Origin: Candidatus Aenigmatarchaeota archaeon
Lineage (GTDB): Archaea > Aenigmatarchaeota > Aenigmatarchaeia > Aenigmatarchaeales > JACQIB01
NCBI GenBank assembly: GCA_038999215.1
Contig: JAWABM010000003.1
Span: 1-46,169, forward strand
DNA length: 46,169 nucleotides
Reading direction: 5' to 3'
Shown piece by piece: positions 6,484 to 36,486 of this stretch. Each line of letters begins with the position of its first letter. Position 1 is the first letter of the stretch. The notes under the pieces are model-generated. The model did no database searches and was not told the DNA's origin. It saw only the letters and a list, made by a program, of their open reading frames with translations. A program made the position numbers and the translations under genes.

Positions 6484-6612
6484 TGGTGCGGGGGGAGTGA
6501 TTCGAACACTCGAACGCACTAAGCGACAGGATTTCCTTGCGCGGTCACGGCCGAAGCTCCCCACTTAAGCGCACTTAAGTCCTGCGGATTTTCCGGGCTT
6601 TCCTACCCCCGC
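6484..6612 (-). tRNA. tRNA-Leu(UAA) with 41-nt intron at 37/38 (6533-6573), CCA encoded
   Basis: GCGGGGG acceptor, CAGGA-CU-UAA-G|A-UCCUG, long variable arm, discriminator A73. Confidence 0.93.
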
Positions 6613-6650
6613 CTAGATAAGCATAAGCTTCAGAAATTTAAAAAAGCCCT

Positions 6651-7436
6651 TCAGAGCTTGTCCGCTTCCTTCACGAATTCCTTGAGCTTCTTCCTGAGCA
6701 CGTCCGCAGCGGCCATGACTATGTCCTCCGCCGACAGCCCTGAGATCGACTCCAGGCTGAACACGAACTTGTCAGGCTCTGCCTCCACTCTTAGGGCCCC
6801 TGCCGGCTGCGCAAGCTTCGCGCATTCCCCGCATAAGTCGCACGCGTCCGTTGCGCTGGCCTTGCCGTCCGATATAGACAGCGCCTTCTTCGGGCACGAC
6901 CTTACAACCTCCTCCGGGTTCGTGAGCTTGCCGTCCGCGGTTATTTTGGGATAGCCGTGGTACCACGCTCTGGCAGCGCTCCACTTCGCGTGATTCCTGC
7001 CGAAGCCCAGTATCGCCGTTGCCTCGAGTTTCAGCTTCTGCCCCTCGAAGAGCTCCACTATGGGCGTCTCCGGATAGAGCGGCGTAGCCACCTTCGGGTC
7101 AGCGGACTTTATGTCCTTCGCGTAGACCATTCCGGGCCCTTTCTTGTCGATGACCATGACTATCTGGCAGTTGGCGCACCCTTTGCCTTCGCATTTGCAG
7201 TCCGCCCTCAGGTTGAGTGCCTTCGGGTCGAACTTCAGCGGAAGCATGCCCAGCCTGTGCGCCAGGACCTCGTCGTAGAGCACGGAGTCGTTGCTGCTGA
7301 AATCCACGCTCTCTATCGCGAGCACCGGCACCTCGCCCATGGCTATCCTTCTGAGGCTGTTCGCGAACTGCAGGCTCGCGCCCTCGACCATTATTTTGAT
7401 TTCCTTGTCGGTTTTGGAAAGAACTTTTATCTTCAT
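6651..7436 (-). CDS. rpoD: RNA polymerase subunit D (Rpo3)
   Basis: FANSLRR, NDSVLYDEVLAHRLG, HAKW, Fe-S motif CP...CDLCGEC. Confidence 0.97.
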   Translation of the reverse strand: MKIKVLSKTDKEIKIMVEGASLQFANSLRRIAMGEVPVLAIESVDFSSNDSVLYDEVLAHRLGMLPLKFDPKALNLRADCKCEGKGCANCQIVMVIDKKGPGMVYAKDIKSADPKVATPLYPETPIVELFEGQKLKLEATAILGFGRNHAKWSAARAWYHGYPKITADGKLTNPEEVVRSCPKKALSISDGKASATDACDLCGECAKLAQPAGALRVEAEPDKFVFSLESISGLSAEDIVMAAADVLRKKLKEFVKEADKL

Positions 7437-7439
7437 CAC

Positions 7440-7838
7440 CTACACCCTCCTTCCCCTTCTCCCTCCCTTCTTCCTGCACGTGTCGTGCGGTATCGGCGTG
7501 ACGTCCTCTATCCTGCCTATCCTCATCCCGCCCCTCGCAAGGGCCCTTATCGCTGGCTGCGCCCCCGCGCCGGGGCTCCTCTTCTTTATTCCGCCCTGCG
7601 CCCTGACCTTTATGTGGACGCCTGTTATCCCCTTCATTATCGCTTCCGATGCCGCCTTGCTGGCCGCAAGCATCGCAGGATACGGGTTCCCGCCTTCCCT
7701 GTCCTTGTCAGTCATCATCCCGGCCGTGACCCTCGCTATGGTTTCCGCGCCTGTCAGGTCCGTGATGTGTATTATCGTGTTGTTTGAAGAGCTGAATATG
7801 TACGCCATCCCCCATCTTACCGCTTCTTTCGGCTTCAT
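7440..7838 (-). CDS. rps11: 30S ribosomal protein uS11
   Basis: [34 protein letters not shown]. Confidence 0.98.
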
Positions 7839-8311
7839 TTCTTGACACCTATTTCGCTGCTCCCGTAGAACTTGACCTCCGGTTCATCTCCGACCGGGAC
7901 TATCATGCTCGGCCATCTTACCCTGCGGCCGCCTACGGCTATGTGGCCGTGCACTATGTACTGCCTTGCCTGCTTGATTGTTTTCGCAATCCCTTTCTTG
8001 AAGACTATTGTCTGCAGCCTCCTTTCGAAAAGGTTGTCAGTTGTCATGCCAAGCACGTCCTCTATTGTCGCGCCCTGTCCGACGAGCCCCATTTTCGCTA
8101 GGCTCTCGATGAGCTGCTTCTCCCCCTCCTTGTCCTTCAGCGCCTCGAGCTCTCTCGCCCTTCCTCTGAACCACCTTATTACGGCCTCGGCCCTCCATAT
8201 TTCCTTCTTCCTTCTCAGGCCGTATTTCGCTTTCACTTCCTTCTCAAGCCCTATCCTTTCGCTGTCCCAGGGCCTTCTCGGCGTCGAGTGCTTTGGTACT
8301 AGCCTTCTCAT
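7835..8311 (-). CDS. rps4: 30S ribosomal protein uS4
   Basis: [29 protein letters not shown]. Confidence 0.97.
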
Positions 8312-8317
8312 TCTTCA

Positions 8318-9013
8318 TCACTTCTTCTCTGCCGGCTTCTCTTCTTGCTTCTTTGCCGGTGCTGCTGGCGCCGCCTTTGCGGGAGCTGCTCCTTTCGCGG
8401 GCGCTGCCGGCGCGGCTGCCGCGGGCGCGGCTGCGCCTGGCTTAGGCGCTGCTCCTGGCAGAGCCTTCTTTACCACGCCCACCCTCGCTCCTGTCCTGAA
8501 GCTCGAGCGCGTTCTCTGTCCGCGTACAGGCAGCCCGAGCTCGTGCCTTATTCCCTTGTAGCACCTTATCCTCTTGAGGAAGTCTATGTCAAATTTCTTC
8601 CTCAGCGCCAGTTCGGAGCCTGAAAGATGCGAATTCTGGTTCGTCTCCGTGTCCGATTGCCTGTTTAGCATGAATGCCGGCAGTCCGTACGCCGCTGGGT
8701 CCTTCAGAACATTCTCCAGCTTCATCAGCTGCTCCTCTGTTAGCTTTCCCATTGTCGCGTCCGGGTCTATGCCTGCGGCCCTAGGTATCGCCAGCGAGAA
8801 AGGCTGGCCTATTCCCTTGACCTTAAGAAGCGCGATTCTGAGTTTTTTCGTTCCGTCAAGGTCCGTGCCTGCGAACCTGACTATCCCCTGAACATCTGCT
8901 GCTATCTTCTTCACGGGCGCCTTCCTTTCCTCCTTCTTTTCTTCTTTCTTCTCGTCCTTTGCCCGCTGTTTCTCTTCCTCTTTCTTCTCGTCCTTAACGT
9001 CTTTTCCCGACAT
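8318..9013 (-). CDS. rps13: 30S ribosomal protein uS13 with charged N- and Ala/Pro/Lys-rich C-terminal extensions
   Basis: IVRFAGTDLDG, YKGIRHELGLPVRGQRTR; AAGGTG RBS before ATG 9013. Confidence 0.97.
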   Translation of the reverse strand: MSGKDVKDEKKEEEKQRAKDEKKEEKKEERKAPVKKIAADVQGIVRFAGTDLDGTKKLRIALLKVKGIGQPFSLAIPRAAGIDPDATMGKLTEEQLMKLENVLKDPAAYGLPAFMLNRQSDTETNQNSHLSGSELALRKKFDIDFLKRIRCYKGIRHELGLPVRGQRTRSSFRTGARVGVVKKALPGAAPKPGAAAPAAAAPAAPAKGAAPAKAAPAAPAKKQEEKPAEKK

Positions 9014-9082
9014 CAATACACCTTGAATTTGTGCCTCCGGAGGCAACCGGCATTGCCGGAATTGTATTTCCTATATGGATTG

Positions 9083-9098
9083 AACCTTTATAAAGGTT
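9083..9098 (-). promoter_or_regulatory. TATA-containing palindrome, promoter of the rps13 operon
   Basis: Perfect 16-bp palindrome AACCTTTATAAAGGTT ~70 nt upstream of rps13. Confidence 0.6.
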
Positions 9099-9146
9099 TC
9101 AGGGCTCGTCCGCTTTCGCAGCGGAGCTTTCTTTCCTAAAAAAACG

Positions 9147-9309
9147 TGGCGCCGGCGGCAGGATTTGAACCTGCGGGCCCCGAAGGGCACCAGATATCAT
9201 GACTTAAGGGACTCTACATTCTCCGCCGCTTTTCAGAGTCAAGCCATCCATTCATCTAACCCGGTTGGGTTCTCAAGTCTGGCGCACTGCCTGACTGTGC
9301 GACGCCGGC
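9147..9309 (-). tRNA. tRNA-Ser(UGA) with 76-nt intron at 37/38 (9196-9271), CCA encoded
   Basis: GCCGGCG acceptor, CCAGA-CU-UGA-G|A-UCUGG, long variable arm, G73. Confidence 0.92.
9196..9271 (-). ncRNA. Intron-encoded box C/D guide RNA (candidate)
   Basis: C-like AUGAAUG, D' CUGA, D AUGA preceded by CUUAAGUC complementary to the host anticodon arm; N+5 = U34. Confidence 0.7.
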
Positions 9310-9341
9310 TTAAAGATAACTAATTCCGCAGAATATTTAAA

Positions 9342-9503
9342 TCAGTATTTTTCCGCATCCTCAAGTAGCATGTCGGGAATTCCGCCTTCGAGCACCTTGA
9401 ACCTCAGCCTGCACTTTGGGCATAATATCTGCTCCTCTTCGAACTCCAGCGGGCCCTTGCATTTCGGGCAGGCCATCACTTCCTTCAGCGCTTCGTCAAT
9501 CAT
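9342..9503 (-). CDS. trm112: Trm112-family methyltransferase activator (53 aa)
   Basis: MIDEALKEVMACPKCKGPL...ICPKCRLRFKVLEGGIPDML; below the ORF-track cutoff. Confidence 0.9.
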   Translation of the reverse strand: MIDEALKEVMACPKCKGPLEFEEEQILCPKCRLRFKVLEGGIPDMLLEDAEKY

Positions 9504-9522
9504 TATAATACTCCCTCTCTCT

Positions 9523-10476
9523 TCATTTATCAGCTTTTGCCCAGGATTTCGGATAGGTCCCTTTCTTCATTATTACGCGCTCCGTGCGCACGGCCACGCC
9601 CTTCCTCCTCATCATGTCGCTGCTGTTCATCTGGGCCTTCCCTATCGATACGAGCTCGCCTTTGTGCGTGAGGACAGCTGTCCAGTCGCCCCTCTCTATT
9701 CCTTTCTCTATGCGTGCCAGCCCGCCCGTTGCGAGCGGCGCTCCGTTGCAGACCGCGTCCACGGCGCTGTCCCTTATCACGACCGCCTTCATGCCGTCCG
9801 CTACCCTTTCCATCGGCATTACCACGTCCCTCATCCTTCCAGTCTCGAGCGCGTCGCAGACCGCCTGCATGGTTACCGCGCATGCTTCGCTGAACGCCCC
9901 ACTCCTCGTCCTTCGCAGCTCCTGCAGATGTGCGCCTATGCCCAGCTTCTTCCCGAGGTCGTCGGCCAGACGTCTTATGTATGTCCCTGCCTCGCAGCCG
10001 ACCTTGATGAGGACGTTCCTGCCGCTTATCTCCAGGACTTCCAAGTAGTAGATCTCCCTTTCGCGCATGCGACGGGCTACGGCCGATTTCTTCGGCGGCA
10101 GCTGCTTTATCTTGCCTATGAACCTTTCCAGGGCCTTGTGCACGTCCGCTTCAGGCGCGTCCTTGTGCAGATTTATAAGCGCGACATATTCCTTTCTGCT
10201 GGAGAGCAGGATGGGCATCAGCTTCGTCGCTTCCTCGAGCGCTATCAGCAGGACGCCGCTGACCCTCGGATCCAGAGTCCCTCCGTGGCTCGCCTTGCTC
10301 ACGCCCGTTATCTGCTTAATCCATGCGTCCACTTGGTGCGATGTCGGCCCGCTGGGCTTGTCGAGAATTATTATGCCGGTTCTTAGCAGTTCCTTATCTG
10401 TCCGGGCCCCGGGGTATTTGCCGCGATCTGGAAGGGAAGTCTCGTCGGACTTTATGAGCCATTTTGCCATAGGCAT
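9523..10476 (-). CDS. cbf5: H/ACA RNA-guided pseudouridine synthase Cbf5
   Basis: LDKPSGPTSHQV, HGGTLDP catalytic Asp, GTYIR, ELRRTRSG, PUA domain. Confidence 0.97.
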   Translation of the reverse strand: MPMAKWLIKSDETSLPDRGKYPGARTDKELLRTGIIILDKPSGPTSHQVDAWIKQITGVSKASHGGTLDPRVSGVLLIALEEATKLMPILLSSRKEYVALINLHKDAPEADVHKALERFIGKIKQLPPKKSAVARRMREREIYYLEVLEISGRNVLIKVGCEAGTYIRRLADDLGKKLGIGAHLQELRRTRSGAFSEACAVTMQAVCDALETGRMRDVVMPMERVADGMKAVVIRDSAVDAVCNGAPLATGGLARIEKGIERGDWTAVLTHKGELVSIGKAQMNSSDMMRRKGVAVRTERVIMKKGTYPKSWAKADK

Positions 10477-10836
10477 CTATTGTTTCTTTTCCTTTGTCGC
10501 CTTCTTCTCGGCCGGTTTTGCAGCGCGCATCCTTGCCTTCGGCCTTTCCTTCGCCTCCTTGGCCTTCCTCTTCTCCGGCACCTGTATGCCGAGCTTCTCT
10601 ATAAGGCCGGACGACTTCCATGCGCTTTCAACAGAGGAATCGTCGTCTCCTGCGAGCTCAAGCACGTTCTCGGTCGGCTCGATGTGCATTATGTTGCACC
10701 TCCTCCTCTTCACGCACGTCACGCTCTTCGGCCCCGTGACCAGCACGAATCCTTCCTTCGGCTCCTCGAGCACGACGCAGTACCTGCCGGCTTCCCTGCC
10801 CGCTATCTTCATGCATACACGGCCCTTGCCTATCAT
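10477..10836 (-). CDS. rpl14e: 50S ribosomal protein eL14
   Basis: GRVCMKIAGREAGRYCVV, VKRRRCNIMHIEPT; Lys-rich tail. Confidence 0.95.
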   Translation of the reverse strand: MIGKGRVCMKIAGREAGRYCVVLEEPKEGFVLVTGPKSVTCVKRRRCNIMHIEPTENVLELAGDDDSSVESAWKSSGLIEKLGIQVPEKRKAKEAKERPKARMRAAKPAEKKATKEKKQ

Positions 10837-11081
10837 CCTCTCACCTTCCTCTTCATCTCCTCGCGCATGCACCTCGGGCAGTATTCCGGCAGCGGCCTCT
10901 CCGGCCTCTTCTGCACCTTCGGCGTGGTCTTCATTTCAACGACAGTCAGGCGCTTGCGGTTGAGCTTGCGGCCGCAGCATCCGCACCTGTGGTAGGCCGG
11001 CCTGCCTTTCACAATTTTCCATTTTGCGCCGCCGGGCACCCTTATCCTCTTCTTCTTTACAGATCTCAGCTGCCTTCTCAT
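10833..11081 (-). CDS. rpl34e: 50S ribosomal protein eL34
   Basis: RVPGG, CGCCGRKL, KRPERP...CPRC. Confidence 0.93.
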   Translation of the reverse strand: MRRQLRSVKKKRIRVPGGAKWKIVKGRPAYHRCGCCGRKLNRKRLTVVEMKTTPKVQKRPERPLPEYCPRCMREEMKRKVRG

Positions 11082-11551
11082 CAATTAACACCCATCATCT
11101 TTCTTGCGACCTGCGACATCGGCACCGACACCACCAGATACCACATCAGCCAGCCGAAGTCGTTTCCGAAAAACGGCAGGCTGAATGGTAGTATGGCCAC
11201 AGCACCTTTATATAGGGATGCGACCCATGGGAAGAATACCGCCGCTATGAGCAGCGTCGGCAGCATGGGCTTCATGCTCATTTTCATCTGCTCGTTGGTC
11301 ATCTTCATGACCTCGCTCATCAGCTTGTTGGCCTGCTCCGGGTCCTTGTTCTTGACCTCCTTTATCTTGTCCTGCAGCTTCTTGGTCTCCTCCCTTATCT
11401 TCTTCATCCTGTCCTGGTCCACCAGCTTCTTGTAGAACAGGGTTATTATCACTGTCATTATCGCTGCTATCACAATCTCCGAAAGTATCGGCGGCAGCGT
11501 CAGCACTGGCGCGAAAAGCGCGTTCAGCCATGCGAAATAGAAATCAAACAT
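11081..11551 (-). CDS. EMC3/TMCO1 (DUF106) Oxa1-superfamily membrane protein
   Basis: TM, coiled coil, MKPM, TM, GWLMWY; conserved position after adk. Confidence 0.9.
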   Translation of the reverse strand: MFDFYFAWLNALFAPVLTLPPILSEIVIAAIMTVIITLFYKKLVDQDRMKKIREETKKLQDKIKEVKNKDPEQANKLMSEVMKMTNEQMKMSMKPMLPTLLIAAVFFPWVASLYKGAVAILPFSLPFFGNDFGWLMWYLVVSVPMSQVARKMMGVN

Positions 11552-12185
11552 TCCTCAGCTCCTCCATTATCCTCCCAACCACTTCCTCTATCGGCGCGTT
11601 TATCTTGTCGTTCCTTATGTCGATTATGATTCCCTTCTTCCTGTAGTAGCCTATCAGGGGCTCGGTCAGCTTCCTGTACTCCTCCAGTCTCTTCCTTATC
11701 ACGTCCTCCTTGTCGTCGTCCCTCTGCACCAGTTCGCCGCCGCACCTGTCGCACACGCCCGGCTTTTTCGGCTTGAGCGTGAGCACGTTGTATATCGCCC
11801 CGCACTTCTTGCACATCCTCCTCGAGGTCGTCCTCTTGATTATGACGTCTTCGGGCACGTCCAGGTTGATGACTGCGTCTATCTTCGCCATCCTGTCCAG
11901 TTCGCGCGCCTGGCCTATCGTGCGCGGGAAGCCGTCGAATATGAAGCCCTTCTTCGCGTCCGGCTTTGCCAGCCTGTCCCTGACAACCTCCATCACTATG
12001 CTGTCAGGCACGAGCCCGCCCTTGTCGATTATCTCCTTCGCCTTCCTGCCTATTTCCGTGCCGTTCTTTATGTTCTCCCTGAAGATGTCGCCTGTCGATA
12101 TGTGCGGCACGCCAAGCTTAGGCGAGAGCTGCTTGGAATATGTTCCTTTCCCTGATCCGGGCGGCCCCAGCATTATTATCTTCAT
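11544..12185 (-). CDS. adk: Adenylate kinase (bacterial type, zinc lid)
   Basis: GPPGSGKGT, HISTGDIFR, FDGFPRT, CxxC...CxxC lid, QRDDD. Confidence 0.97.
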   Translation of the reverse strand: MKIIMLGPPGSGKGTYSKQLSPKLGVPHISTGDIFRENIKNGTEIGRKAKEIIDKGGLVPDSIVMEVVRDRLAKPDAKKGFIFDGFPRTIGQARELDRMAKIDAVINLDVPEDVIIKRTTSRRMCKKCGAIYNVLTLKPKKPGVCDRCGGELVQRDDDKEDVIRKRLEEYRKLTEPLIGYYRKKGIIIDIRNDKINAPIEEVVGRIMEELRNV

Positions 12186-12186
12186 A

Positions 12187-13695
12187 TCAACCACCAAGGA
12201 ATTTTCTCACTCCCGGCGTCAGCTCCTCCATGTACTGCTGCGCTATCGATTCGTAGAACTGGTAGACTATCATGACCGAGAGCAGTATTCCCGTTCCTGT
12301 TCCGAGCGCGTTGGTGAGGTCTGCGAAGCCTGCCAAGAAGCCGACAAAGGCCCCGCCAAGCACAGCAAGCGAGGGTATGTACCTCTCGAGCACCTGCTCG
12401 ATTATCCTCGGGTCCCTCCTGAAGCCTGGTATCATCAGGAATGACGACTTGAACTGCTCAGAGACGCTGGCGGCGTCCATGCCCGCTGTGTTGACCCAGA
12501 ACACCGAGAATATCACGGAGCCTACCATCATCGCCAGCATGTATGTCGCCGCCCTCGCGTAGTCGCTTAGCGCCACGGCAGGTATCTGGGGCACGCTCGT
12601 CAGCACGAGCATTCCTGCTGCCCCGCCGACGATTGCGCCTATGAGCGCCATCTTGATGTAGTGCTTCTTCCAGAGCCAGGCCGCAAGTATGGCAAAGCCC
12701 AAGCTGAGCACGCCTGCAAGCACCGCCACTATCATCAGCCCTATCGAGTTCGGCGAGGTCAGGTAATAGGCCAGCCCGCCCACGACCTGCCCGCTCTTGT
12801 CGTAGTTGCCGAGGAAGGTTATGCCCTTGGCGGAAAGCATCTTGGCTAGCACCTGCACGTTCGCTATCACTGCTGCGGTGAGTATGACGGGTATGTTCGA
12901 CGAGTAAAGGAACTTTAGCGGCCATCTCCTTGAGGCGAACTTGCCGAACGGCAGCGAGAAGGCCATCGGTATCTCTATCCTGATGCCCTGCACGTACACG
13001 ACTATCACGAAGACCACGAGGGTGGCTATCAGCGGCAGCAGGTTTATGGCGCCCATCACGGGCTGGCCCGATGAAAGCGACGTTATGAAGGAGGCTATCA
13101 GCCCTCCGCCTGTGTCGCCTATCGGCGGCGAGAAGGTCCTGACGAATATGGTCTTGGCCACGCCTGCGGCTATGAACAGCGAGACGCCGGATCCTATCCC
13201 CCACTTCTGGCACATGTCGTCCATTATCATGACTATGTATCCGCCAAGCGCGAGCTGGGCCATCACTACCGCTGCGAGCGCTATGCTCCCGCCTGCCGGC
13301 GGGACCGCGCCTGCGGCAACGTACGCGACGGCTTCGAAGACGCAGAACGCGATTGTGAGCACTTTCTGGGTGCCCATGAACTTCTTCTTCCCCTCCTCGC
13401 TCTTGGTGTCCCAGTTTAATATCTTGCTTCCGACGAGGAGCTGGAGAATGATTGACGCTGTGACTATCGGCCCGATTCCGAGCGTCAGCAGCGAGCCGAA
13501 CTTCGAGCCGAAGACTATCTCGAGGAACTCGAACTGGGCGACCGCGGCCATGTCCACCCCCCAGACGTTTATCGAGCCCAGGACGAAGAACATGACCAGT
13601 ATTATTCCCGTCCACTTGAGCTTGTCCCTGAACGTTACCTTCTGCTCCGGCTTAACGACGCTTGGGAACCTTGATGATATAGCTGTAAGGTCCAT
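12187..13695 (-). CDS. secY: Preprotein translocase SecY
   Basis: LGIGPIVTASIILQLL, WGIGSGVSLFI, YSSNIPVIL, IPGFRRDPR, GTGILL. Confidence 0.98.
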   Translation of the reverse strand: MDLTAISSRFPSVVKPEQKVTFRDKLKWTGIILVMFFVLGSINVWGVDMAAVAQFEFLEIVFGSKFGSLLTLGIGPIVTASIILQLLVGSKILNWDTKSEEGKKKFMGTQKVLTIAFCVFEAVAYVAAGAVPPAGGSIALAAVVMAQLALGGYIVMIMDDMCQKWGIGSGVSLFIAAGVAKTIFVRTFSPPIGDTGGGLIASFITSLSSGQPVMGAINLLPLIATLVVFVIVVYVQGIRIEIPMAFSLPFGKFASRRWPLKFLYSSNIPVILTAAVIANVQVLAKMLSAKGITFLGNYDKSGQVVGGLAYYLTSPNSIGLMIVAVLAGVLSLGFAILAAWLWKKHYIKMALIGAIVGGAAGMLVLTSVPQIPAVALSDYARAATYMLAMMVGSVIFSVFWVNTAGMDAASVSEQFKSSFLMIPGFRRDPRIIEQVLERYIPSLAVLGGAFVGFLAGFADLTNALGTGTGILLSVMIVYQFYESIAQQYMEELTPGVRKFLGG

Positions 13696-13696
13696 C

Positions 13697-15971: not shown

Positions 15972-15972
15972 G

Positions 15973-16565: not shown

Positions 16566-16569
16566 GTCA

Positions 16570-17546: not shown

Positions 17547-17554
17547 GCGGTCAC

Positions 17555-21166: not shown

Positions 21167-21935
21167 TTTCCTCCGCCTCCTCTATTTCAACGTAATCCTC
21201 TTCCTTTGCGCCGTCCGCATTATCCGCCCCTTCCACGGATCCTTCTGGCTTGCCATCTTTCCCGGGCTCCGTTTCCTTGGCCGTGTCCGCTGCCATATCC
21301 CTCCTTACCTTCACCGTCTTCATGACCTCGGGCGCGGCTGCCAGCTCCTTTTCCACCTTTCTCATGGCCTCTATGTCCTTCGGTATCTCGCTGAGTATCC
21401 TGACCTGTATGCCTATGTGCCCGAGCTTCACCTGCGCCGTCGCATAGGCCTTCCTCATCTTCTCCGCGGGCTCGCCCGTGAACTTCAGGTAGCCGGCCGA
21501 GAACTTCTCGGTTCTTCCTATCTCGCCGCCGAGCTTGCCGCTTATCCTTATCGCGACGCCAAGCGCGCCTGCCTGCATTATCCTGGTGAGCGCGAGGTTG
21601 ACGACCCTCTTGTAGTTCAGGCCGCGCTCTATCGCTGCCGCTATCTGCTTGGAAATTATGCTTGCGTCCAGGTCCGGGTTCTCGACCTCCTGCACGTCCA
21701 GTTGCGGGTTCTCTATGCCGAACTTTTCCTTGAGCGCCTGCGTCATCGCCTCTATGGTCTTTCCTCCGCGGCCTATCACCATTCCTGGCTTCTGTGCGAA
21801 GACCGTTATCCTCATGGACAGCGGCGTCCGCTGTATGTCGCTATGGCTATAGCCAGCGCGCGCGAACTCTTTCGAAAGGAACTCGTCCACCTGCAGCAGC
21901 CTGAGGTTCTCTTTTATGAATTTCTTCTCTATCAT
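21147..21935 (-). CDS. rps3: 30S ribosomal protein uS3 with acidic C-terminal extension
   Basis: ARAGY, PGMVIGRGG, ISGKL, KLGHIGIQV. Confidence 0.97.
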   Translation of the reverse strand: MIEKKFIKENLRLLQVDEFLSKEFARAGYSHSDIQRTPLSMRITVFAQKPGMVIGRGGKTIEAMTQALKEKFGIENPQLDVQEVENPDLDASIISKQIAAAIERGLNYKRVVNLALTRIMQAGALGVAIRISGKLGGEIGRTEKFSAGYLKFTGEPAEKMRKAYATAQVKLGHIGIQVRILSEIPKDIEAMRKVEKELAAAPEVMKTVKVRRDMAADTAKETEPGKDGKPEGSVEGADNADGAKEEDYVEIEEAEESGDNKE

Positions 21936-25728: not shown

Positions 25729-25736
25729 TATTTAAA
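25729..25736 (-). promoter_or_regulatory. TATA box of the rpl3 operon
   Basis: TTTAAATA on the minus strand, the same motif seen before tuf, rps10 and rps12. Confidence 0.6.
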
Positions 25737-25744
25737 GGTTCTTA

Positions 25745-28516: not shown

Positions 28517-28532
28517 AAGACTGCTTGAAACT

Positions 28533-28550
28533 AAAAGGATTTATCCTTTT
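28533..28550. promoter_or_regulatory. Inverted repeat in the 51-bp divergent intergenic region (shared promoter/operator)
   Basis: AAAAGGAT-TT-ATCCTTTT centred between the two divergent start codons. Confidence 0.55.
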
Positions 28551-28567
28551 TTTGTCTGAATTAGGGG

Positions 28568-30568
28568 GTGAACTATTTCAAACTCAGGCCGCACATGGCA
28601 GGCTGGGCCACCAGCAGCGTCATGGCAATCATGCCTTCCGAAATGCTTATGCCCGAAGACACCTCTTTCCTCGGCTACAGGAGCGGCAGGAGGATACGGG
28701 AAATTGAGGGATATGTAAAGGCATTCGAGGAGAAGGTGGCCAAAAAGTGCAGGGATCTCAGGGCGCCGATAAGGGAGGACGTGAAGAAATATCATGCTGC
28801 GCTCAATGACCTGGAGAAGGCCGAAGTGGTCCTGCTGACGACCACGGACACCGTCAGCTCGCGCCCGCCTTACAACCTTACCAGGCTGGCCGCGGAGCAT
28901 CCTGCCAATCTTTCCACCAAGATATATTCCGACCTTCTCTTCGAGTTCGAGCAGAACACCGGGAAGGCCGCCTATCTTGCCGTGATTGATCCGCCTTATC
29001 TGCCGGCAGTCGTCGGCGCGAACGGCGAGATTGCTTTCGGGCCTGACAAATTTTACATCCCGCACCAGTTCACCAAATGGCACGACTTGGACGGGCAGAA
29101 AGAGCGGCTGGAATACGGCCAAGAGAGGGCCGAAGTTTACGAGAAGGAGATAAGGGGGCTTTACCCTGAATTCGAACCCTCCTTCAGGGCCAGGCAATGG
29201 GACAAGGATATGGAAAGCAACTTGCTCAAGGCACTGGAAGCCGTAGCAGCTGAGATGATTTCGCAGTTCATCGTGGACAAATGCGAAGGCAACCTTTATG
29301 TGCTCATGCCGGGTAGCGGCGCACAGAAAGGCATAAAGGAAAAGGTGATCGCGTCGGTGCTGGAGAGGAAGCCGCGAATAATGATGAAGCCGCACATAGC
29401 AGATGTCTTCGAATCGCTGAACCGCGACGCTTATGAGAAGGATCTCACATGCTCCAAGTCCGTATACAACCGCGTCGCCGCGCTGCTCAGCAACACGTAT
29501 GTTTACAAGCACGAACGCTATGATTTCCCGTATTCTAAGATGGACAAGGTCAACATCAACAGGAATGCAAGGCCCTGCCCTGACGGCTTCATCTATTCCG
29601 AGTGGGCGCCGGGCCCGGGCGAGTGTTGCATGCACAAGGACAGGCCCAAGCTCTGCCTGCAGCACCAGTTCAGGAAGATCCTCGAAGGTTATGAGAACAG
29701 GGAAATGATCAAGGCCTACATGACAGGCAATGATGTCGTTGTCGGCGGCGTGACCTTGAGAGGCAGGCGCATACATGTACCTAGCATCCACACAGTGCTC
29801 AAGGAGCTGAATCGCGACCTCCGCGAGGACCTGAAACCGCTGAGGCTCCCTGACATGAGGGTCGGGAGGGAGCAGGCAGATTGCAGCTGTTCCGAGATAG
29901 CCGGAGCGATGGACGCTGCCGAGTTTCACCTGAAGAAGATGGGCGCTCTCAAGACGCAGCCCTGGCTGGCGTTTCTGGCGGATGTGGGCAACGTCTGCCA
30001 TGAAACCATGTTCGCCAGCGCCCCGCCCGCTTGGAGGCAGGCCATGGAAAAGCCAGGTATTATGGAGTACCAGACAGAGGAGGGCTCGATGACAATACAT
30101 TTCAAGCCGGATCTTGCGGCATTTTACTCCGAGAAAGATGACGTTCTCGTCGTGATAGATGCCAAATCCGGCGTCGCCCCTTTCACGACTTGGCTGCCCA
30201 AGAAGAGCCATAGCACGCAGCTCGGAGGCTACACATGGTACTTGCACAAGGTATTTGAAGGTGAAAGAGGGTTCGGCGACTCTTACGGTGTGATACAGTA
30301 TCTGCAGGATTATCAGACGGAGGAGCCGAGAGCGATAAGGATAAGCACAGGCAGGGATAGTAGCGCAATGAAGGTGTTCCACCACAAGACCAGAGAATTT
30401 GCCAGGTTGCACAGGCTCTGGACCGATGAGCCCGGGCAGTTTCTTGAGGACTACTACGCCAAGCCGTATTACTACAAGAAGCATCTGAAATCCGGGCCCA
30501 GAGGCGCAGCCTGCATCGAAGCGGTCGAAAGCATGAAGAAGCAGCCGACGCTCGGCTCGTTCAGCTAG
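28568..30568 (+). CDS. Large protein with C-terminal PD-(D/E)XK (Cas4/RecB-like) nuclease domain and PIP-like box
   Basis: SCSEI...GNVCHE...FKPD...VVIDAKSG...HSTQLGGY; ends KKQPTLGSFS; N-terminal ~430 aa unassigned. Confidence 0.75.
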   Translation: MNYFKLRPHMAGWATSSVMAIMPSEMLMPEDTSFLGYRSGRRIREIEGYVKAFEEKVAKKCRDLRAPIREDVKKYHAALNDLEKAEVVLLTTTDTVSSRPPYNLTRLAAEHPANLSTKIYSDLLFEFEQNTGKAAYLAVIDPPYLPAVVGANGEIAFGPDKFYIPHQFTKWHDLDGQKERLEYGQERAEVYEKEIRGLYPEFEPSFRARQWDKDMESNLLKALEAVAAEMISQFIVDKCEGNLYVLMPGSGAQKGIKEKVIASVLERKPRIMMKPHIADVFESLNRDAYEKDLTCSKSVYNRVAALLSNTYVYKHERYDFPYSKMDKVNINRNARPCPDGFIYSEWAPGPGECCMHKDRPKLCLQHQFRKILEGYENREMIKAYMTGNDVVVGGVTLRGRRIHVPSIHTVLKELNRDLREDLKPLRLPDMRVGREQADCSCSEIAGAMDAAEFHLKKMGALKTQPWLAFLADVGNVCHETMFASAPPAWRQAMEKPGIMEYQTEEGSMTIHFKPDLAAFYSEKDDVLVVIDAKSGVAPFTTWLPKKSHSTQLGGYTWYLHKVFEGERGFGDSYGVIQYLQDYQTEEPRAIRISTGRDSSAMKVFHHKTREFARLHRLWTDEPGQFLEDYYAKPYYYKKHLKSGPRGAACIEAVESMKKQPTLGSFS

Positions 30569-30613
30569 GTCGTTGTTTCTTTTGATAAATGCCTTCTTTT
30601 CCGAAAGAAAAGA

Positions 30614-30698
30614 TGGCGCCGAGAGGGAGATTCGAACTCCCGAACCCCGAAGGGCACCAGCTTTCCAGGCTGGCGCAATACCGCTATGCGATCTCGGC
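30614..30698 (-). tRNA. tRNA-Ser(GGA), intronless, CCA encoded
   Basis: GCCGAGA acceptor, CCAGC-CU-GGA-AA-GCUGG, long variable arm, G73. Confidence 0.96.
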
Positions 30699-30730
30699 TT
30701 GAATTAGAATTATGCTGTGAAATTTAAAAA

Positions 30731-31054
30731 TTAATCCCTGAGCTCGATGGAAATCTGCACGCCTTCTGGCACGGTGACCCTCATTATCTGCCTGAGCGTG
30801 CGCTCGTCAGCTGTGACGTCTATTATGCGCTTGTGCACGCGCATCTCCCACCTGTCGAAAGTCGCGTTCCCGTGCCCCGTCCCGTCCCCGCATGGCGTCT
30901 TCATCGTCACGACTTTCAGCTTCTTCGTCGGAAGCGGGATCGGCCCTTTCATGGCCACCCCGAACTTCTCGGTTATCGTTTTTACCTCTGAGCAGATCTG
31001 GTTTAGCCTCTCCGGGTCGGTGCTGCTGAGCTTTATTCTCGCCCTTTGCGCCAT
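30731..31054 (-). CDS. rps10: 30S ribosomal protein uS10
   Basis: [29 protein letters not shown]. Confidence 0.98.
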
Positions 31055-31085
31055 GTCATCACTAAGAAAGTAGTATCTAACAAAG

Positions 31086-31095
31086 TATTTAAATA
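31086..31095 (-). promoter_or_regulatory. TATA box of rps10
   Basis: Palindromic TATTTAAATA ~32 nt upstream of the ATG. Confidence 0.6.
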
Positions 31096-31218
31096 GGTTT
31101 CTGGATCTCTGGCACCGTTCCGTTACTTGCTGCCTCCCGTTTCATGGTTATCATGCGGCACATAGCTAAGACTACGTGCCCATTATTAAAAAAGAAAAAG
31201 GAAAGGCCTGGAAAAAAT

Positions 31219-32484
31219 TTAGGCCTTCGCTACTTCGAGGCAGACGCCTGCAGCTACTGTCATGCCCATGTCCCTCACGGCGAAGCGTGCGAGCTCTGGG
31301 AAGTTCTTGCTGCTCTCGATGACCATCGGCTTGGTCGGAACGACCTTCACTATAGCCGCGTCACCGGTCTTTATGAAGTCCGGCTTCTCCTGTATGGTTT
31401 CTCCTGTCTTCGGGTTGATCTTCTTCGCAATATCCGTTATCTTGCAGGCGACCTGGCATGTGCCGACATGGAAGACCGGCGTGTAGCCCTTGGTTATCAC
31501 GTTGGGGTGCTGGAGCACGATTATCTGGGCCGTGAACTCCTTCGCCACTGTCGGCGGGTTGTTCGCGTGCCCGAGAACGTCCCCCCTCTTTATGTCCTTC
31601 TTGTCCACTCCCCTGACGTTGAAACCGACATTGTCTCCAGGCTTCGCTTCTGGCACCACCTCATGGTGCATCTCTATGGTCTTCACCTCGCCTGTAGCGC
31701 CTGAAGGCATGAAGACAACCTTGTCTCCGGTCTTCAGTACCCCTGTCTCTACTTTGCCTACTGGCACTGTCCCTATTCCTGTTATCGAGTACACGTCCTG
31801 TATGGGCAGCCTCAAAGGCTTGTCCACAGGCTGCGGAGGCAGCGTCAGGTCGTCCAACGCCTCGAACAACGTCTTTCCCTTGTACCATGCCATGTTCGTG
31901 CTCTTCTTGGCGACGTTGTCGCCTACATAACCCGATGTTGGTATGAACGGTATCTTGCTAATGTCATACCCCACTCCCTTGAGGAGTTTTTCGACCTCGG
32001 CCTTTGTCGCAAGATACTTCTTCTCATCATATCCGACGGCGTCCATCTTGTTGATGGCCACAATCAGCTGAGCGACCCCCAGGACTTTGATGAGAAAGAC
32101 GTGTTCTTTGGTCTGATCCTGTACCCCTTCCTTTGCCGAACACACTAATATTGCGGCATCCGCTTGCGAAGCTCCGGTTATCATGTTCTTGACAAAATCC
32201 CTGTGTCCCGGTGCGTCGATGACGGTGAAATAGTACTTGGGTGTGTCAAACCTCTGGTGCATGATGTCGATGGTGACTCCTCTTTCCCTCTCTTCCTTGA
32301 GTTTGTCCATGACGAACGCGAACTCGAAGGTTTCCTTCTTTAGTTCCTTCGCCAGTTCCTTCAGTTTTCTCATGTCTTCTTCTCTTATGCTCCCCGTATC
32401 GTAGATCAGCCTGCCCACTAGCGTTGACTTTCCGTGGTCGACGTGACCTATCGTTACGATGTTCATGTGTGGCTTTGCAGCCAT
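31219..32484 (-). CDS. tuf: Elongation factor 1-alpha
   Basis: [27 protein letters not shown]. Confidence 0.99.
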
Positions 32485-32549
32485 TTCTTACCACCCTCCT
32501 GTTTTCTTAGCTTGCGCTAAAATGATATATGCTTTATGACGATGGAACG

Positions 32550-32557
32550 TATTTAAA
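32550..32557 (-). promoter_or_regulatory. TATA box of tuf
   Basis: TTTAAATA on the minus strand in the fus-tuf spacer. Confidence 0.55.
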
Positions 32558-32566
32558 GATTTGGTT

Positions 32567-34744
32567 TTACTCGACCTTGGCCAGGCCTTTCCTTTCCCTT
32601 ATCTTGTTGACTATCTGCGGAACGAGGTCCTTTGGCACTTTCTCGAAGGTAACGTCCATCAGCGACTGGAATCCCTTTCCGCCGGTTGCGCTCTTAAGCT
32701 GCCCCTCGAAGCCGAACATCTCCGCAACCGGCAGCTTCACTGTCACGACAGCAGAGAATTCCTCCTGCTCCACGTTTATCAGCTCGCCGCGGCGGTTGTT
32801 CACTTCGCCAGAGACGTTCCCTATATAGTCCTGCGGCGTGTCGATGCGCAGGATCTGCTTCGGTTCTAGCAATCCTGCGCCTCCCTTGAGTATGGCCTCA
32901 TGTATCGCTTCCCTTACAGCCGGCATGACCTGCGCAGGCCCTCTGTGCACCGCGTCCTCGTGCAGCGTGACGTCGCTCAGCCTGACAACTATTCCCGCGC
33001 ACGGCTCTTTTGCCTGCGGACCCTCATCCATCGCTTTCCTGAACGCCTCCTTTATCAGCTCCATCGCCTCGTTCAGGTACTGTATGCCTTTGGTGTCGTC
33101 GATGAGCATGCAGTGGTTGTATATCAGCTTGACGCTTTTGGCCTGCTCCCTCTTCATCCCCATTTCCTCGAGTTTCTTCACAGTTTCCGTGTCCTTAGCC
33201 TTCATCTCGCTGTCCTTGAGCCTGCCTTCTATCATTTCCCTATACATCTCCGGCGGCACCGGTTCGACCGAGAAGTAGAACCTGTTATGCTTGTTAGGCG
33301 ACTTCCCCTCCACTATGGGGCTCTTTGCCATCACTGTCTCTCTGTAGACCACTATCGGCGGCGAAACCTCTATCTCCACGCCTTTCTCCTTTATTTTTCT
33401 CTCTACCTTGGCGTCAAGATGCAGCTCGCCCAAACCAGATACGAGAGTCTCGCCTGTTTCCGGATTTATCTGTATTTTGAGCGTCGGATCCTCCCTCCCG
33501 AGGGTCTTGAGGATGTCAATGAGCTTCGGCAGGTCCTGCGGGTTCTTCGGCTCCATGGCCTTCGTCACTACCGGTTCGAATATGTGCTTTATCGCTTCGA
33601 ACGGCTCTATCGGATGCGCCGGGTCGTACATGGTTTCTCCGACCATTGTTTCTGATAGGCCCACGAGGCCGACTATGTTTCCTGAAAGCACTACTTCGAC
33701 AGGTATTCTCTTGTCGGCTATGAACGTGGTGACCTGCTGCACTTTCGTCTCCTTGCCTATGTTGTGCATGAAGACCGACTGGCCTCGCATGAGCTTTCCT
33801 GAGAATATCCTTGCTGTCGAAATCATTCCGGCATGCGGGTCGGCTACGACTTTCGTGATGACAGCCGCCAGGTTGCCGTCCGGGTCGCAGCTCCTGAGCT
33901 GCTTGCCTGTTGCGCTCTCCGGATCGCCCTTCCATATCTTGCCTACCCTGTAGGGCTGCGCCTCTATCGGCGAGGGAAGGTGCTTCACCACCATGTCCAT
34001 GACCACTATGTTCATGGGCGCCTTTGTCGCGAGCTCCTCGTCCTTGTCCTGCGAGCACAGTTCTATGATATCCTTGAACGTGACGTTGAACTTCTTCATC
34101 GCCGGGATGGATATCGCCCATTTTCTCAGCGCCGAGCCGAACGCGACCGACCCGTCCTCGACCTTCACCACCCACTTGTCCTTGAATTCCGGCTCCACGT
34201 GCCGCTGGATGAACTTGTTCACTTCAACGACGATTCGTGCGAGCCTCTTCTGTAGCGCATCCGGCGTCAGCTTGAGCTCCTTTATCGCCCTGTCGACCTT
34301 GTTTATGAAAAGCACGGGTTTGACCCTTTCGTTGAGCGCCTGCTTCAGCACGGTCTCGGTCTGGGGCATTATGCCCTCGACAGCGCAGACCATCACCACC
34401 CCGCCGTCCACTGCCCGCATGGCCTGCGTCACGTCCGCCCCAAAGTCCACATGGCCTGGCGTGTCCAGAAGATTGATAAGGTATCGCTGCCCTTCGTATT
34501 CGTGGGCCATCGTCACCGTGGCTCCGTAGATGGTCATGAGCCGCTCCCGCTCTTGCTCGTCTATCCAGGTGAGCATTCGCTCCCCGACTAGGTCGCGCGC
34601 CATCATCCCGGCCGCAGCCGCAAGGTTGTCGGTGAGGCATGTCTTGCCGTGGTGGATGTGGGACACTATCCCTATGTTCCTTATGTTCTTCGGGTTGCTC
34701 ATCAGAGCTTGCACTCTTTCAGAATACTCGTCCTTGGCCGCCAT
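32567..34744 (-). CDS. fus: Elongation factor 2
   Basis: DTPGHVDF, NKVD, KSPNKHN, diphthamide loop HEDAVHRGPAQ; variant G1 SHIHHGKT. Confidence 0.98.
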   Translation of the reverse strand: MAAKDEYSERVQALMSNPKNIRNIGIVSHIHHGKTCLTDNLAAAAGMMARDLVGERMLTWIDEQERERLMTIYGATVTMAHEYEGQRYLINLLDTPGHVDFGADVTQAMRAVDGGVVMVCAVEGIMPQTETVLKQALNERVKPVLFINKVDRAIKELKLTPDALQKRLARIVVEVNKFIQRHVEPEFKDKWVVKVEDGSVAFGSALRKWAISIPAMKKFNVTFKDIIELCSQDKDEELATKAPMNIVVMDMVVKHLPSPIEAQPYRVGKIWKGDPESATGKQLRSCDPDGNLAAVITKVVADPHAGMISTARIFSGKLMRGQSVFMHNIGKETKVQQVTTFIADKRIPVEVVLSGNIVGLVGLSETMVGETMYDPAHPIEPFEAIKHIFEPVVTKAMEPKNPQDLPKLIDILKTLGREDPTLKIQINPETGETLVSGLGELHLDAKVERKIKEKGVEIEVSPPIVVYRETVMAKSPIVEGKSPNKHNRFYFSVEPVPPEMYREMIEGRLKDSEMKAKDTETVKKLEEMGMKREQAKSVKLIYNHCMLIDDTKGIQYLNEAMELIKEAFRKAMDEGPQAKEPCAGIVVRLSDVTLHEDAVHRGPAQVMPAVREAIHEAILKGGAGLLEPKQILRIDTPQDYIGNVSGEVNNRRGELINVEQEEFSAVVTVKLPVAEMFGFEGQLKSATGGKGFQSLMDVTFEKVPKDLVPQIVNKIRERKGLAKVE

Positions 34745-34755
34745 TCAAACGCCCC

Positions 34756-35022
34756 CTACTTCTCCTTTACCTTCTTCAGGTTCTCGGCGACGAAATCGAC
34801 GGTGTCCAGCGGTATCGAAACGCTCTTGGTGAATCTCTTTGTGCCGTCCGGCGCGAAGAAACCCCTGGAGACTGAAACGAACTCGTTCTCGCCCTTGCTC
34901 GATATCGCCTTCTTCCTTGCGACCTCGAGGAAGTTGTTGTTCCCGAACTTCGTTTCCTCAGCCTTTATGGTCTCGAATTCCACGTCTCTCGTCTGTTCGT
35001 CCCTTCTTGGTCTTTCTGGCAT
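34756..35022 (-). CDS. Conserved-looking hypothetical protein (88 aa), possibly PC4/PUR-like nucleic-acid-binding fold
   Basis: ATG 35022 ~24 nt downstream of TATA (35046-35053); beta-rich segment FLEVARK...FVSVSRGFF...KSVSIP followed by one helix. Confidence 0.65.
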   Translation of the reverse strand: MPERPRRDEQTRDVEFETIKAEETKFGNNNFLEVARKKAISSKGENEFVSVSRGFFAPDGTKRFTKSVSIPLDTVDFVAENLKKVKEK

Positions 35023-35247
35023 GGGACTATAATACGACAGAATGTTATTTAAAGGTTTTACCAAACCGATATTTTTAAGGCATTCGCATTTTCTTCTGTT
35101 CCTCCCCGTCTTCCCTGCAGCCGCCAGCACTTCGGCGCAGAACGCCTTCAGTCGCAGGAAGTGCTGCTTGTTTGCAGGGCATGCGTTGACCCTTATCATG
35201 AGCGAGTATCAGTGCGTCGGATTATGATCTTATTGAAGAAGGCGTTA

Positions 35248-35850
35248 TCAGCGTGCGCCCGCGGCTTCTCTCTCTATCCTTTCCTTCTCCTTTATCGCGT
35301 TCGACTTCGAGGAGTCGTAGTTGTAGCATGCTATAAGCTCTTCCGCAAGGCAGTCAGCCATCTTCTTGCCCTTGCCGTGCGATTTCTGGTAGCTTCCCTG
35401 CGTTATCAGCCTCAGCGCGAGGTCTATCCTGCGCTGCGGCGCGGTTATCACGGCCTTCCTTACCATTATGCCCCCAACCTGGTAGCCTGTTATCTCCTCG
35501 CGGAGCGCCGCGTTCTCTATGGCCTTGACAACGACCTCGATGGGGTTCTTCTTCGTCCTCTGCTCTATCAGCTCGAGCGTCTCCTTCATCAGCTCCCAAG
35601 CTGTCGTGGATTTTCCCGTCGCTATCCCGCTGCTTATGAGGTGCTTCTTCCCCCTGTGCCCGGGCACGAACATCCTGTTCATCAGCCTCTCGATTATGTT
35701 CATGCTGGACTTGTGGAACTGCTGGTGCGCCTGCCTTCCAGCGCTCCTCGGGGCGACGACGGGCTTCAGGTTTATGTAGCTCTTCAGGCCCTTGTCTTCG
35801 ACCTTTATGCCTTCAGTGCTCCACTTGTCGAAAAGCTTTATTTCAGCCAT
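35248..35850 (-). CDS. rps7: 30S ribosomal protein uS7
   Basis: KLFDKW, IIERLMN, NPIEVVVKAIENAA, ERIEREA. Confidence 0.98.
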   Translation of the reverse strand: MAEIKLFDKWSTEGIKVEDKGLKSYINLKPVVAPRSAGRQAHQQFHKSSMNIIERLMNRMFVPGHRGKKHLISSGIATGKSTTAWELMKETLELIEQRTKKNPIEVVVKAIENAALREEITGYQVGGIMVRKAVITAPQRRIDLALRLITQGSYQKSHGKGKKMADCLAEELIACYNYDSSKSNAIKEKERIEREAAGAR

Positions 35851-36278
35851 CACTTGGCACCCGCCGCCTTCTTGCCCTTCCCTTTGAGAAGTTCGCTCAG
35901 AGGGACGTTATTGACCTTGATGACCTTCCATCTGACGCCCCACATGCTGCCTATCGGCCCGCCCTGGGAGCCGCCCAAGCCTTCGACCATTACCTCGTCG
36001 TGCTCCTTTATCTGGTCTATCGCGCCCGTCTTCGGGCAGAAAGCCGTTATCTCCTTGCCGTTCTTGAGCAGCTGGACGCGGACCGCCTTTATGATGCCGG
36101 AGTGGGGCTGCTTCTGCTCTATGCCCTTTTTCGCTATGACTATGCCCTTTGCCTGCGGCGCACCGGCAAGCGGGTCTTTCTTCTCTTTGAGCTTTAGCGT
36201 CCTGACCTTGTATTTGGTCTTCATCCATCTCTTCCTGTGCCTGCTCTTCTTCATCGTCCTTGCTCCGAATTCTCCCAC
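35850..36278 (-). CDS. rps12: 30S ribosomal protein uS12 (GTG start)
   Basis: [28 protein letters not shown]; AGGTGA RBS. Confidence 0.97.
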
Positions 36279-36311
36279 CGTTTCACCTTTGTTAGTTTTG
36301 ACGCCCCAAGG

Positions 36312-36319
36312 TATTTAAA
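36312..36319 (-). promoter_or_regulatory. TATA box of the rps12 operon
   Basis: TTTAAATA on the minus strand ~34 nt upstream of the start. Confidence 0.6.
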
Positions 36320-36371
36320 CCTTGTTTATTGCCGCCTTCTTTGGCGCAGCTTTCTTTCTAAGAAAGGTGCA

Positions 36372-36486
36372 TGGTAGCCCCGGGAGGATTCGAACCTCCG
36401 TCCCGAGGTTTCTTCGTCATCTCCGAAGATCTGCGCTTTGGAAACGCTCCAAAGCCTCGTATCCTTGGCCGCTGGACGACGGGGCT
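36372..36486 (-). tRNA. tRNA-Gln(UUG) with 39-nt intron at 37/38 (36410-36448), CCA encoded
   Basis: AGCCCCG acceptor (A1-U72), CGAGG-CU-UUG-G|A-CCUCG, T-loop UUCGAAU. Confidence 0.93.

Follow-up and report, generated by a model that had tools for sequence, protein, structure and literature searches.

A set of transfer RNA (tRNA) introns in a 46,169-nucleotide (nt) stretch of DNA from a Candidatus Aenigmatarchaeota archaeon probably carries box C/D-type methylation guides directed at the wobble ribose (nt 34) of the introns' own tRNAs. The stretch, referred to as the window, is contig JAWABM010000003.1 of assembly GCA_038999215.1. It is the third contig (C3) of the organism's own genome (G000), which was assembled to 571 kb in 24 contigs and is rated 88% complete; loci of relatives carry L-numbers (L018, L038, etc.). 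In the introns of tRNA-Gln(UUG), tRNA-Leu(UAA), and tRNA-Ser(UGA), a complement to the anticodon loop is followed by a D-type box of the form NNGA, and the fifth base upstream of the box pairs with U34, as the N+5 rule of archaeal box C/D small RNAs (sRNAs) would have it for a methylation target. The minimal form of these guides and their occurrence in several tRNAs are new relative to the known intron guides of tRNA-Trp and tRNA-Met, and the methylation is predicted from the sequence.

Predicted guides in the Gln and Leu introns

The minus strand of the window holds five intron-bearing tRNA genes, for Pro(GGG), Leu(UAA), Ser(UGA), Gln(UUG), and Cys(GCA) (Table 1); the window also has a tRNA-Ser(GGA) gene, which is intron-less. 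ARAGORN run without introns reported a single tRNA in the window, and run with introns it detected the genes and mislabelled several anticodons. The tRNA genes were therefore parsed with our own parser.

A first-pass annotation of this DNA had proposed that the Gln, Leu, and Ser introns each place an anticodon-loop complement before an NNGA box. Reading of the sequence bears this out for all three, the Ser pairing including one G35.U wobble. The base that pairs with U34 at N+5 is 36438 in Gln (5 nt upstream of the box CAGA and opposite 36452), 6566 in Leu (opposite 6577), and 9205 in Ser (opposite 9275). The annotation also described these introns as single kink-turn (K-turn) guides of about 40 nt. 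That description stands for Gln (39 nt) and Leu (41 nt), but the 76-nt Ser intron is a dual-guide box C/D sRNA and is treated separately below.

In its minimal form, the module takes up about 30-45 nt. A variable linker at the 5' end leads to an anti-anticodon guide of 7-9 nt and then to the D-type box, for the most part UUGA or CUGA. Toward the 3' side follow either a short C stem or a kink-loop (K-loop), a 3-nt bulge ending in U, and a C-type GA. Positions one and two of the D-type box pair back with the dinucleotide that directly follows this GA, and the tail that follows serves the splicing motif known as bulge-helix-bulge (BHB). For example, the 3' tail of the Gln intron forms the BHB central helix with nt 32-35, and in Leu(UAA) the two bases after the GA are CC (6543-6544), which pair with the GG of its D-type box. 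Searches with Rfam covariance models, at E values up to 1, returned nothing except tRNA over the Gln, Leu, and Ser genes.

Enrichment over chance and the set of putative target tRNAs

The genome has 22 intron-bearing tRNA genes with 21 distinct sequences. Two identical copies of tRNA-Asn(GUU), both intron-bearing, lie about 3.9 kb apart (C1:6996-7112 and C1:10909-11025), and the second was removed from the test set. The scan of the 21 tRNAs required five contiguous pairs to nt 32-36, a GA at +7/+8 counted from the partner of nt 34, and, 2-28 nt beyond it, a UGA. The full module was found in seven introns: Gln, Leu-UAA, Lys-UUU, Arg-UCU, Glu-UUC, Met-CAU, and Leu-CAA. Because its C box lies upstream, Ser is included only once the downstream UGA is left out of the rule, for eight of 21 with nt 34 in the N+5 register. 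In 2000 dinucleotide shuffles of the introns, the mean was 0.26 and the maximum 4, compared to the seven observed. With the GA moved to other offsets between 3 and 14, each offset gave 0-2 tRNAs of the genome, and 13 of 418 non-cognate pairs of intron and anticodon loop contained the module. When the relatives are added, the next GA lies at offset 7 in 85 of the 115 distinct introns that have an anti-anticodon segment. Trp fails the scan solely through one C.A opposition at nt 36.

By the ARAGORN anticodons and the scan, all five U34 tRNAs of the split NNR boxes (Gln, Lys, Glu, Leu-UAA, and Arg-UCU) have the module, and among the seven family-box U34 tRNAs seen, only Ser-UGA does. Five of the family-box tRNAs (Pro-UGG, Ala-UGC, Leu-UAG, Val-UAC, and Gly-UCC) are intron-less. 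With C34 in place of U34, the targets are Met, Leu-CAA, and Trp. This set of split-box U34 tRNAs, Ser-UGA, and C34 tRNAs is consistent with a function in limiting wobble. The Cys(GCA) intron, named in the annotation as an internal control, had no guide module in the same scan. In the Pro(GGG) intron, CUGAUGA and a 9-bp complement to nt 28-36 can be recognized by eye, and with AUGA as the D-type box, the nucleotide at N+5 is U32, not nt 34.

Conservation in relatives

Within the order, 40 relatives were searched with six genes, all fetched loci were parsed, and distinct genes were counted. Some loci were misparsed (L043, L110, and L122 for UAA; L141 for UUU; L126 for UUC; L041 for CUU; L034 for GUA) or mis-cut (L018), and misparses stay in the denominators. 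The register is kept in all 26 Gln-UUG orthologs, all eight of Leu-CAA, six of seven of Glu-UUC (the exception being a misparse), and both of Arg-UCU. It is also kept in four of five Met genes, 8/13 Lys-UUU genes (with L141 a misparse), one of two Ser-CGA genes, and 7/11 parsed Leu-UAA genes, which amounts to 7/8 of those correctly parsed, with more recognized by eye. The parsed loci of Tyr-GUA, Lys-CUU, Ile-UAU, Arg-UCG, Thr-UGU, Asp, and Val from the order showed no module.

For the wider phylum, the sample was 301 genomes, in 121 of which the Gln gene was matched. Forty full-length Gln regions from other families were fetched, of which 34 could be parsed and six could not. The register is kept in 30 of the 34, and three more have one mismatch at nt 32. 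The sequences of the linker and the C stem have fully turned over, whereas the guide, its register, and the boxes stay. The guides follow the anticodon of the host tRNA across the order and the phylum. In two genes for Leu-CAA, L052 and L053, the guide module sits at a non-canonical site upstream of the anticodon. The annotation had envisaged a lineage-wide system for U34. The lineage-wide part holds across the order and the phylum, but the system is not confined to U34, since the guides of Met-CAU, Leu-CAA, and Trp-CCA aim at C34.

The K-turn

For 85 distinct introns with the module, the pairing between the D-type and C-type boxes was analyzed. The D-type box begins with two bases that pair with the two following the C-type GA, and the 4b-4n position is paired in 75 of 81 cases (G-C 27, A-U 43, C-G 3, and G.U 2); 5000 permutations of the partners averaged 55 paired cases and reached 63 at most. 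In introns with a spacer of at least 10 nt, a hairpin that starts directly after the GA of the D-type box leaves exactly 3 nt to the C-type GA in 36 of 43, with other bulge lengths in 0-7 of the 43. The bulge ends in U, which places a U at L3, and short spacers give a K-loop. The module introns thereby show the elements of a K-turn, with C and NC stems on either side of a 3-nt bulge and tandem G.A pairs, and by this covariation and geometry, the GA/GA boxes behave as a real K-turn, as the annotation had supposed. The D-type boxes of the 85 introns are UUGA (39), CUGA (24), UCGA (8), and others (14). For introns with long spacers, the canonical reading of GAUGA, in which its first GA would be the sheared pair, was discarded because the C stem ends right before the GAU; it would need a bulge of 6, found in 2/43, rather than a bulge of 3.

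The Ser(UGA) intron

The Ser(UGA) intron is a box C/D sRNA with C, D', C', and D boxes, and the spacer between its C' and D boxes is 12 nt long. If the ends of this genome's intron were ligated, the terminal K-turn would gain a closed C stem. Its sequence is conserved over the order, and guide 1 is nearly invariant. Guide 1 has a 10-base complement in the genome's own 16S ribosomal RNA (rRNA), at C5:17830-17839. Its N+5 nucleotide falls on an A that aligns with what we take to be A1408 of the decoding centre in E. coli numbering. The intron thus appears to have a second predicted target, the decoding centre of 16S rRNA. Guide 2, which addresses U34, is in its own lineage also a perfect match to the anticodon loop of Leu(UAA), and in other families it is a different conserved sequence. 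The Ser genes L063, L064, and L067 have a U34 guide in the same register on an additional mini-intron, which lies upstream of the anticodon (by eye).

Positions 21763-21819 of the window (minus strand) give a weak Rfam match to the C/D sRNA family sR44, at 22.8 bits (E 0.17), which is under the gathering score. The matched part contains AUGAGGA and GGUGAUAGG, the latter similar to the guide 2 that the Ser intron has in other families.

Relation to splicing and a possible mechanism

The guide is not the strand used for splicing. Intron bases n-5 to n-2 pair 4/4 with nt 32-35 in 70 of the 85 introns, which is the canonical BHB central helix, and in shifted registers at most 10 introns have four pairs. 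The BHB strand comes from the 3' end of the intron, and the guide is therefore an additional complement that lies apart from it, further 5'. In 57/85, the BHB strand is overlapped or directly adjoined by the C-type strand. Since nt 32-35 cannot pair with both strands, the guide:target and BHB folds are mutually exclusive. Their energies in ViennaRNA lie within about 0-5 kcal/mol of each other, and for Gln, Lys, and Met the minimum-energy fold is guide:target. An H/ACA-like reading was dropped: in it, the two intron strands would flank one U, whereas here both strands with complementarity to the anticodon loop share nt 32-35.

The enzymes of box C/D methylation, on whose presence the annotation had made its proposal depend, are encoded in the genome: fibrillarin (PF01269, 229.8 bits, 216 aa), Nop5 (PF01798, 166.4 bits, 331 aa), and L7Ae (PF01248, 93.7 bits). 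The fibrillarin and Nop5 genes are adjacent, and the nearest matches to fibrillarin, at 75% identity, are in metagenome-assembled genomes labelled Candidatus Aenigmatarchaeota (DPANN group). In the mechanism proposed here, L7Ae would bind the single K-turn and recruit Nop5-fibrillarin. Fibrillarin would then methylate the 2'-OH of the nucleotide paired with the fifth guide base, giving 2'-O-methyluridine (Um34) or 2'-O-methylcytidine (Cm34). The reaction could occur in the pre-tRNA (in cis), where the guide:target and BHB folds would be alternatives of similar energy, or in trans after excision of the intron, the form that the annotation had proposed. In cis, the RNA would refold to the BHB and be spliced afterward. 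Tethering of the target through a loop of 2-14 nt may offset the loss of specificity that comes with a single K-turn.

A more far-reaching version is that these are natural single-K-turn C/D ribonucleoproteins (RNPs) acting in cis, in which the intron guide programs methylation of its own nt 34 before splicing, selection thereby retains the introns, and 2'-O-methylation atop a base modification made by Elp3 replaces 2-thiolation in the split boxes. We hold this version tentatively, at a little short of an even chance. Its last part, that ribose methylation may stand in for thiolation, is supported by the presence of Elp3 in the assembly, in which neither an Ncs6/NcsA-type protein (TIGR00269) nor a SpoU-class (TrmJ-like) methyltransferase was found, at the 88% completeness given above.

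If the guides act as proposed, many anticodon-loop introns of archaeal tRNAs would acquire a concrete function and a selective reason to exist. A natural minimal C/D guide, with one K-turn, 7-9 bp, and a target tethered in cis, could also serve as a test bed for the N+5 ruler. If the single-K-turn version acting in cis is true, one K-turn and a tethered target would suffice for site-specific guide methylation. The targets, all five split-box U34 tRNAs together with Met, Trp, and Leu-CAA, would tie guide methylation to the restriction of wobble in a reduced DPANN genome. Owing to its simplicity, the motif could be scanned for in all archaeal tRNA introns.

Comparison with known guides

The closest known system is the archaeal pre-tRNA-Trp intron (Haloferax volcanii; sR50 of Pyrococcus), described in the accessible text of the sources as a box C/D guide for Cm34 and Um39. 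As far as the accessible portions of two reviews (2014 and 2024) go, it is the single case of an intron-borne guide, with such a role discussed for this one tRNA only. Like it, the introns described here sit at 37/38, are aimed by the N+5 rule at nt 34 of the tRNA that hosts them, and have guide and BHB folds that exclude each other. The Trp intron, however, concerns one tRNA and is a full C/D and C'/D' RNA of about 60-100 nt, whereas up to nine tRNA species per genome are involved here, most of the introns have 30-45 nt, a single K-turn, and a single guide, and U34 makes up most of the targets. A Trp host and guides to both nt 34 and nt 39 characterize the sR50 type; in their own tRNAs, Gln, Leu, and Ser have the nt 34 guide only. 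The lineage's own Trp introns fit that type better. By eye, a C34 guide in register can be read in the partial Trp gene (C22:1-118) as well as in its orthologs, and the Trp introns of G000, L213, and L223 have a second element, UUGGU...UUGA, that places C39 at N+5, so that the two guides mirror the published pair of Cm34 and Um39.

Nanoarchaeum equitans provides a precedent outside Trp, since the 66-nt intron of its elongator tRNA-Met was proposed to be a C/D sRNA (Randau 2012, PMC3491384). N. equitans is likewise a DPANN archaeon with an intron-borne C/D-like RNA, and the Met-CAU intron here has a C34 guide. That case is one long intron in one genome, for which the available text of the paper states no target register, in contrast to the phylum-wide minimal guides in many tRNAs. 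Guides to nt 34 also exist in trans. C/D sRNAs of Pyrococcus target nt 34 of Leu-CAA, Leu-UAA, Met, and Trp, according to the accessible part of the source, sR27 of Pyrobaculum targets U34 of Gln, and Um34 has been measured in tRNA-Gln(UUG) of Sulfolobus acidocaldarius. The target nucleotide, most of the tRNA set, and the expected enzyme are the same as here. These trans-acting sRNAs are separate genes with two motifs, whereas the guides here sit in the target's own intron, tethered by a 2-14-nt loop and with one K-turn.

In structure, the module resembles the C'/D' K-loop or K-turn of archaeal C/D sRNAs: a D-type NNGA and a C-type GA are joined by a short loop or stem, the G.A pairs are in tandem, L3 of the 3-nt bulge is a U, and the guide immediately precedes the D-type box on its 5' side. 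It differs in standing alone, without a terminal C/D motif, and in that 3b and 4b vary while 4b-4n pairs. Full-text literature searches, with subscription journals outside their coverage, found no description of mini-intron guides or of tRNA introns in Aenigmatarchaeota. The annotation's statement that it knew of no report generalizing such guides to Gln, Leu, and Ser introns is consistent with these searches, but since intron guides in Trp and N. equitans Met and trans guides to nt 34 are already published, the novelty is one of variant and not of kind.

Weighing the explanations

Several observations weigh against guide methylation by these introns. In the minimal introns, the pairing is short, 7-8 bp in the organism's own genome and 7-9 bp overall, compared to the usual guides of about 10-12 nt with a 12-nt spacer. 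The Gln and Leu mini-introns each have a single K-turn made of one D-type and one C-type box, and comparison of orthologs revealed no conserved box in their 5' linkers that could supply a second motif (C/D in addition to C'/D'). In the available text on an engineered single-site C/D RNP, the particle was active and not site-specific, specificity requiring both motifs (Hardin and Batey 2006). The C-type box is GAUGA in 57/85 introns and NNUGA in the rest, often off the consensus (RUGAUGA, with CUGA for the D box, in the accessible part of PMC5539422), and the 3b.3n position is variable. Two tRNAs with U34 and an intron, Arg-UCG and Ile-UAU, had no module in the scan of the genome. Some orthologs also depart from the register: of the four parsed Leu-UAA genes that lack it, three are misparses and L038, with its GA two bases late, is a real exception; in Met, L115 has UCUA; in Lys-UUU, the GA of the D-type box is shifted or lost in four of 13 genes (L114, L121, L122, and L124); and it is lost or shifted in Gln L188. 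The ortholog counts, moreover, overstate independence because the compared genomes are kin. A search of sequencing runs listed no RNA run containing this stretch, and the share of its words in any one run was at most 0.15.

One could consider the K-turn and anti-anticodon segment as an L7Ae-binding device for folding or timing, which masks the anticodon or delays the BHB and splicing without methylation by fibrillarin. The exclusive folds of similar energy would suit such a device, as would the single K-turn, given the lost specificity of the engineered RNPs, and the accessible text of PMC5539422 has L7Ae serving in non-methylating RNPs as well. A device of this kind needs no fixed distance of exactly 7 nt between the GA and the partner of nt 34, but that distance holds in 85/115 introns and across nine anticodons. 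The Ser intron, a complete C/D sRNA, has the same register, and the target set matches known targets of 2'-O-methylation at nt 34. We regard the folding device as unlikely. Less likely again is that the modules are remnants of mobile C/D-like elements, now without function, whose complementarity to the anticodon loop stems from insertion (homing through pairing and the BHB). The accessible text of PMC3491384 discusses C/D sRNAs as mobile in N. equitans, the same module occurs upstream of the anticodon in Leu-CAA (L052 and L053) and Ser genes (L063, L064, and L067), and a guide-less second intron family occupies six different tRNAs, including the D loop of the initiator. The orthologous Gln intron, however, keeps its guide, register, and K-turn phylum-wide while the linker and C stem turn over, and 4b-4n covaries, which amounts to purifying selection on the module and not to decay. 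Mobility may explain the origin of the modules but not their maintenance.

Finally, an NNGA could by chance lie beside the ordinary pairing of intron and anticodon in the BHB, as NNGA has little information and archaeal 37/38 introns always pair with nt 32-35. Yet the BHB strand is the 3' end of the intron, and the guide is a separate complement further 5'. The shuffles, the offset scan, the cross-pair controls, conservation, covariation, and the preferred offset of 7 all reject chance, which we consider extremely improbable.

Table 1. Intron-bearing tRNA genes of the window and the parts of their introns, with window positions
Feature	Position	Strand	Description
tRNA-Gln(UUG) gene	36372..36486	-	39-nt intron at 37/38; Rfam tRNA 47.5 bits and own parse
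Gln intron	36410..36448	-	sequence reading
Gln guide	36434-36442	-	pairs with nt 30/31-37
Gln D-type box	36430-36433	-	CAGA
Gln C stem and loop	36422-36429	-	2-bp stem, UUCG loop
Gln bulge	36419-36421	-	3 nt
Gln C-type GA	36417-36418	-	
Gln 3b/4b	36415-36416	-	
tRNA-Leu(UAA) gene	6484..6612	-	41-nt intron at 37/38; ARAGORN with introns (mislabelled Ser) and own parse
Leu(UAA) intron	6533..6573	-	sequence reading
Leu(UAA) guide	6562-6569	-	
Leu(UAA) D-type box	6558-6561	-	GGGA
Leu(UAA) C-stem hairpin	6550-6557	-	GC-UUCG-GC
Leu(UAA) bulge	6547-6549	-	
Leu(UAA) C-type GA	6545-6546	-	
tRNA-Ser(UGA) gene	9147..9309	-	76-nt intron at 37/38; Rfam tRNA 42.6 bits
Ser intron	9196..9271	-	box C/D sRNA with C, D', C', D boxes
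Ser C box	9252-9257	-	
Ser guide 1	9237-9247	-	complementary to 16S rRNA
Ser D' box	9233-9236	-	CUGA
Ser C' box	9213-9220	-	
Ser guide 2	9201-9212	-	12 nt; ends at 9201
Ser D box	9197-9200	-	AUGA
tRNA-Cys(GCA) gene	42368..42479	-	38-nt intron; member of second intron family
tRNA-Pro(GGG) gene	4372..4476	-	28-nt intron; ARAGORN and own parse

Other introns and RNA genes

The second intron family comprises introns of about 37-43 nt without a guide module, in which a U-rich/A-rich hairpin is followed by a CAC..GAAAAGGCGCGG-like sequence. Its hosts are Cys, Arg-UCG, Ala-GGC, Pro-CGG, His, and the D loop of initiator tRNA-Met. The loci are the Cys-GCA gene of the window and C1:13111-13231, C8:24739-24856, C1:48311-48429, C5:11651-11763, and C10:8802-8919 of the genome. 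The recurrence of this guide-less sequence suggests a spreading intron family. The tRNA-Ile with anticodon UAU (C8:12702-12818) has a 39-nt intron without a guide module. Among the relatives, L046, L049, L052, L053, L063, L064, and L067 have two introns or introns at non-canonical sites of the anticodon arm, some with an upstream guide module.

The window also encodes an archaeal signal recognition particle RNA at 2015-2283 on the plus strand (129.5 bits), without a 40-position stretch of the Rfam model. Elsewhere in the genome, the 16S rRNA match (C5:16024-17971) spans 1948 nt compared to 1478 model positions, and the 23S match (C6:8235-11686) spans 3452 nt compared to 2987. Because the matches are longer than the models, both rRNA genes probably contain insertions or introns.

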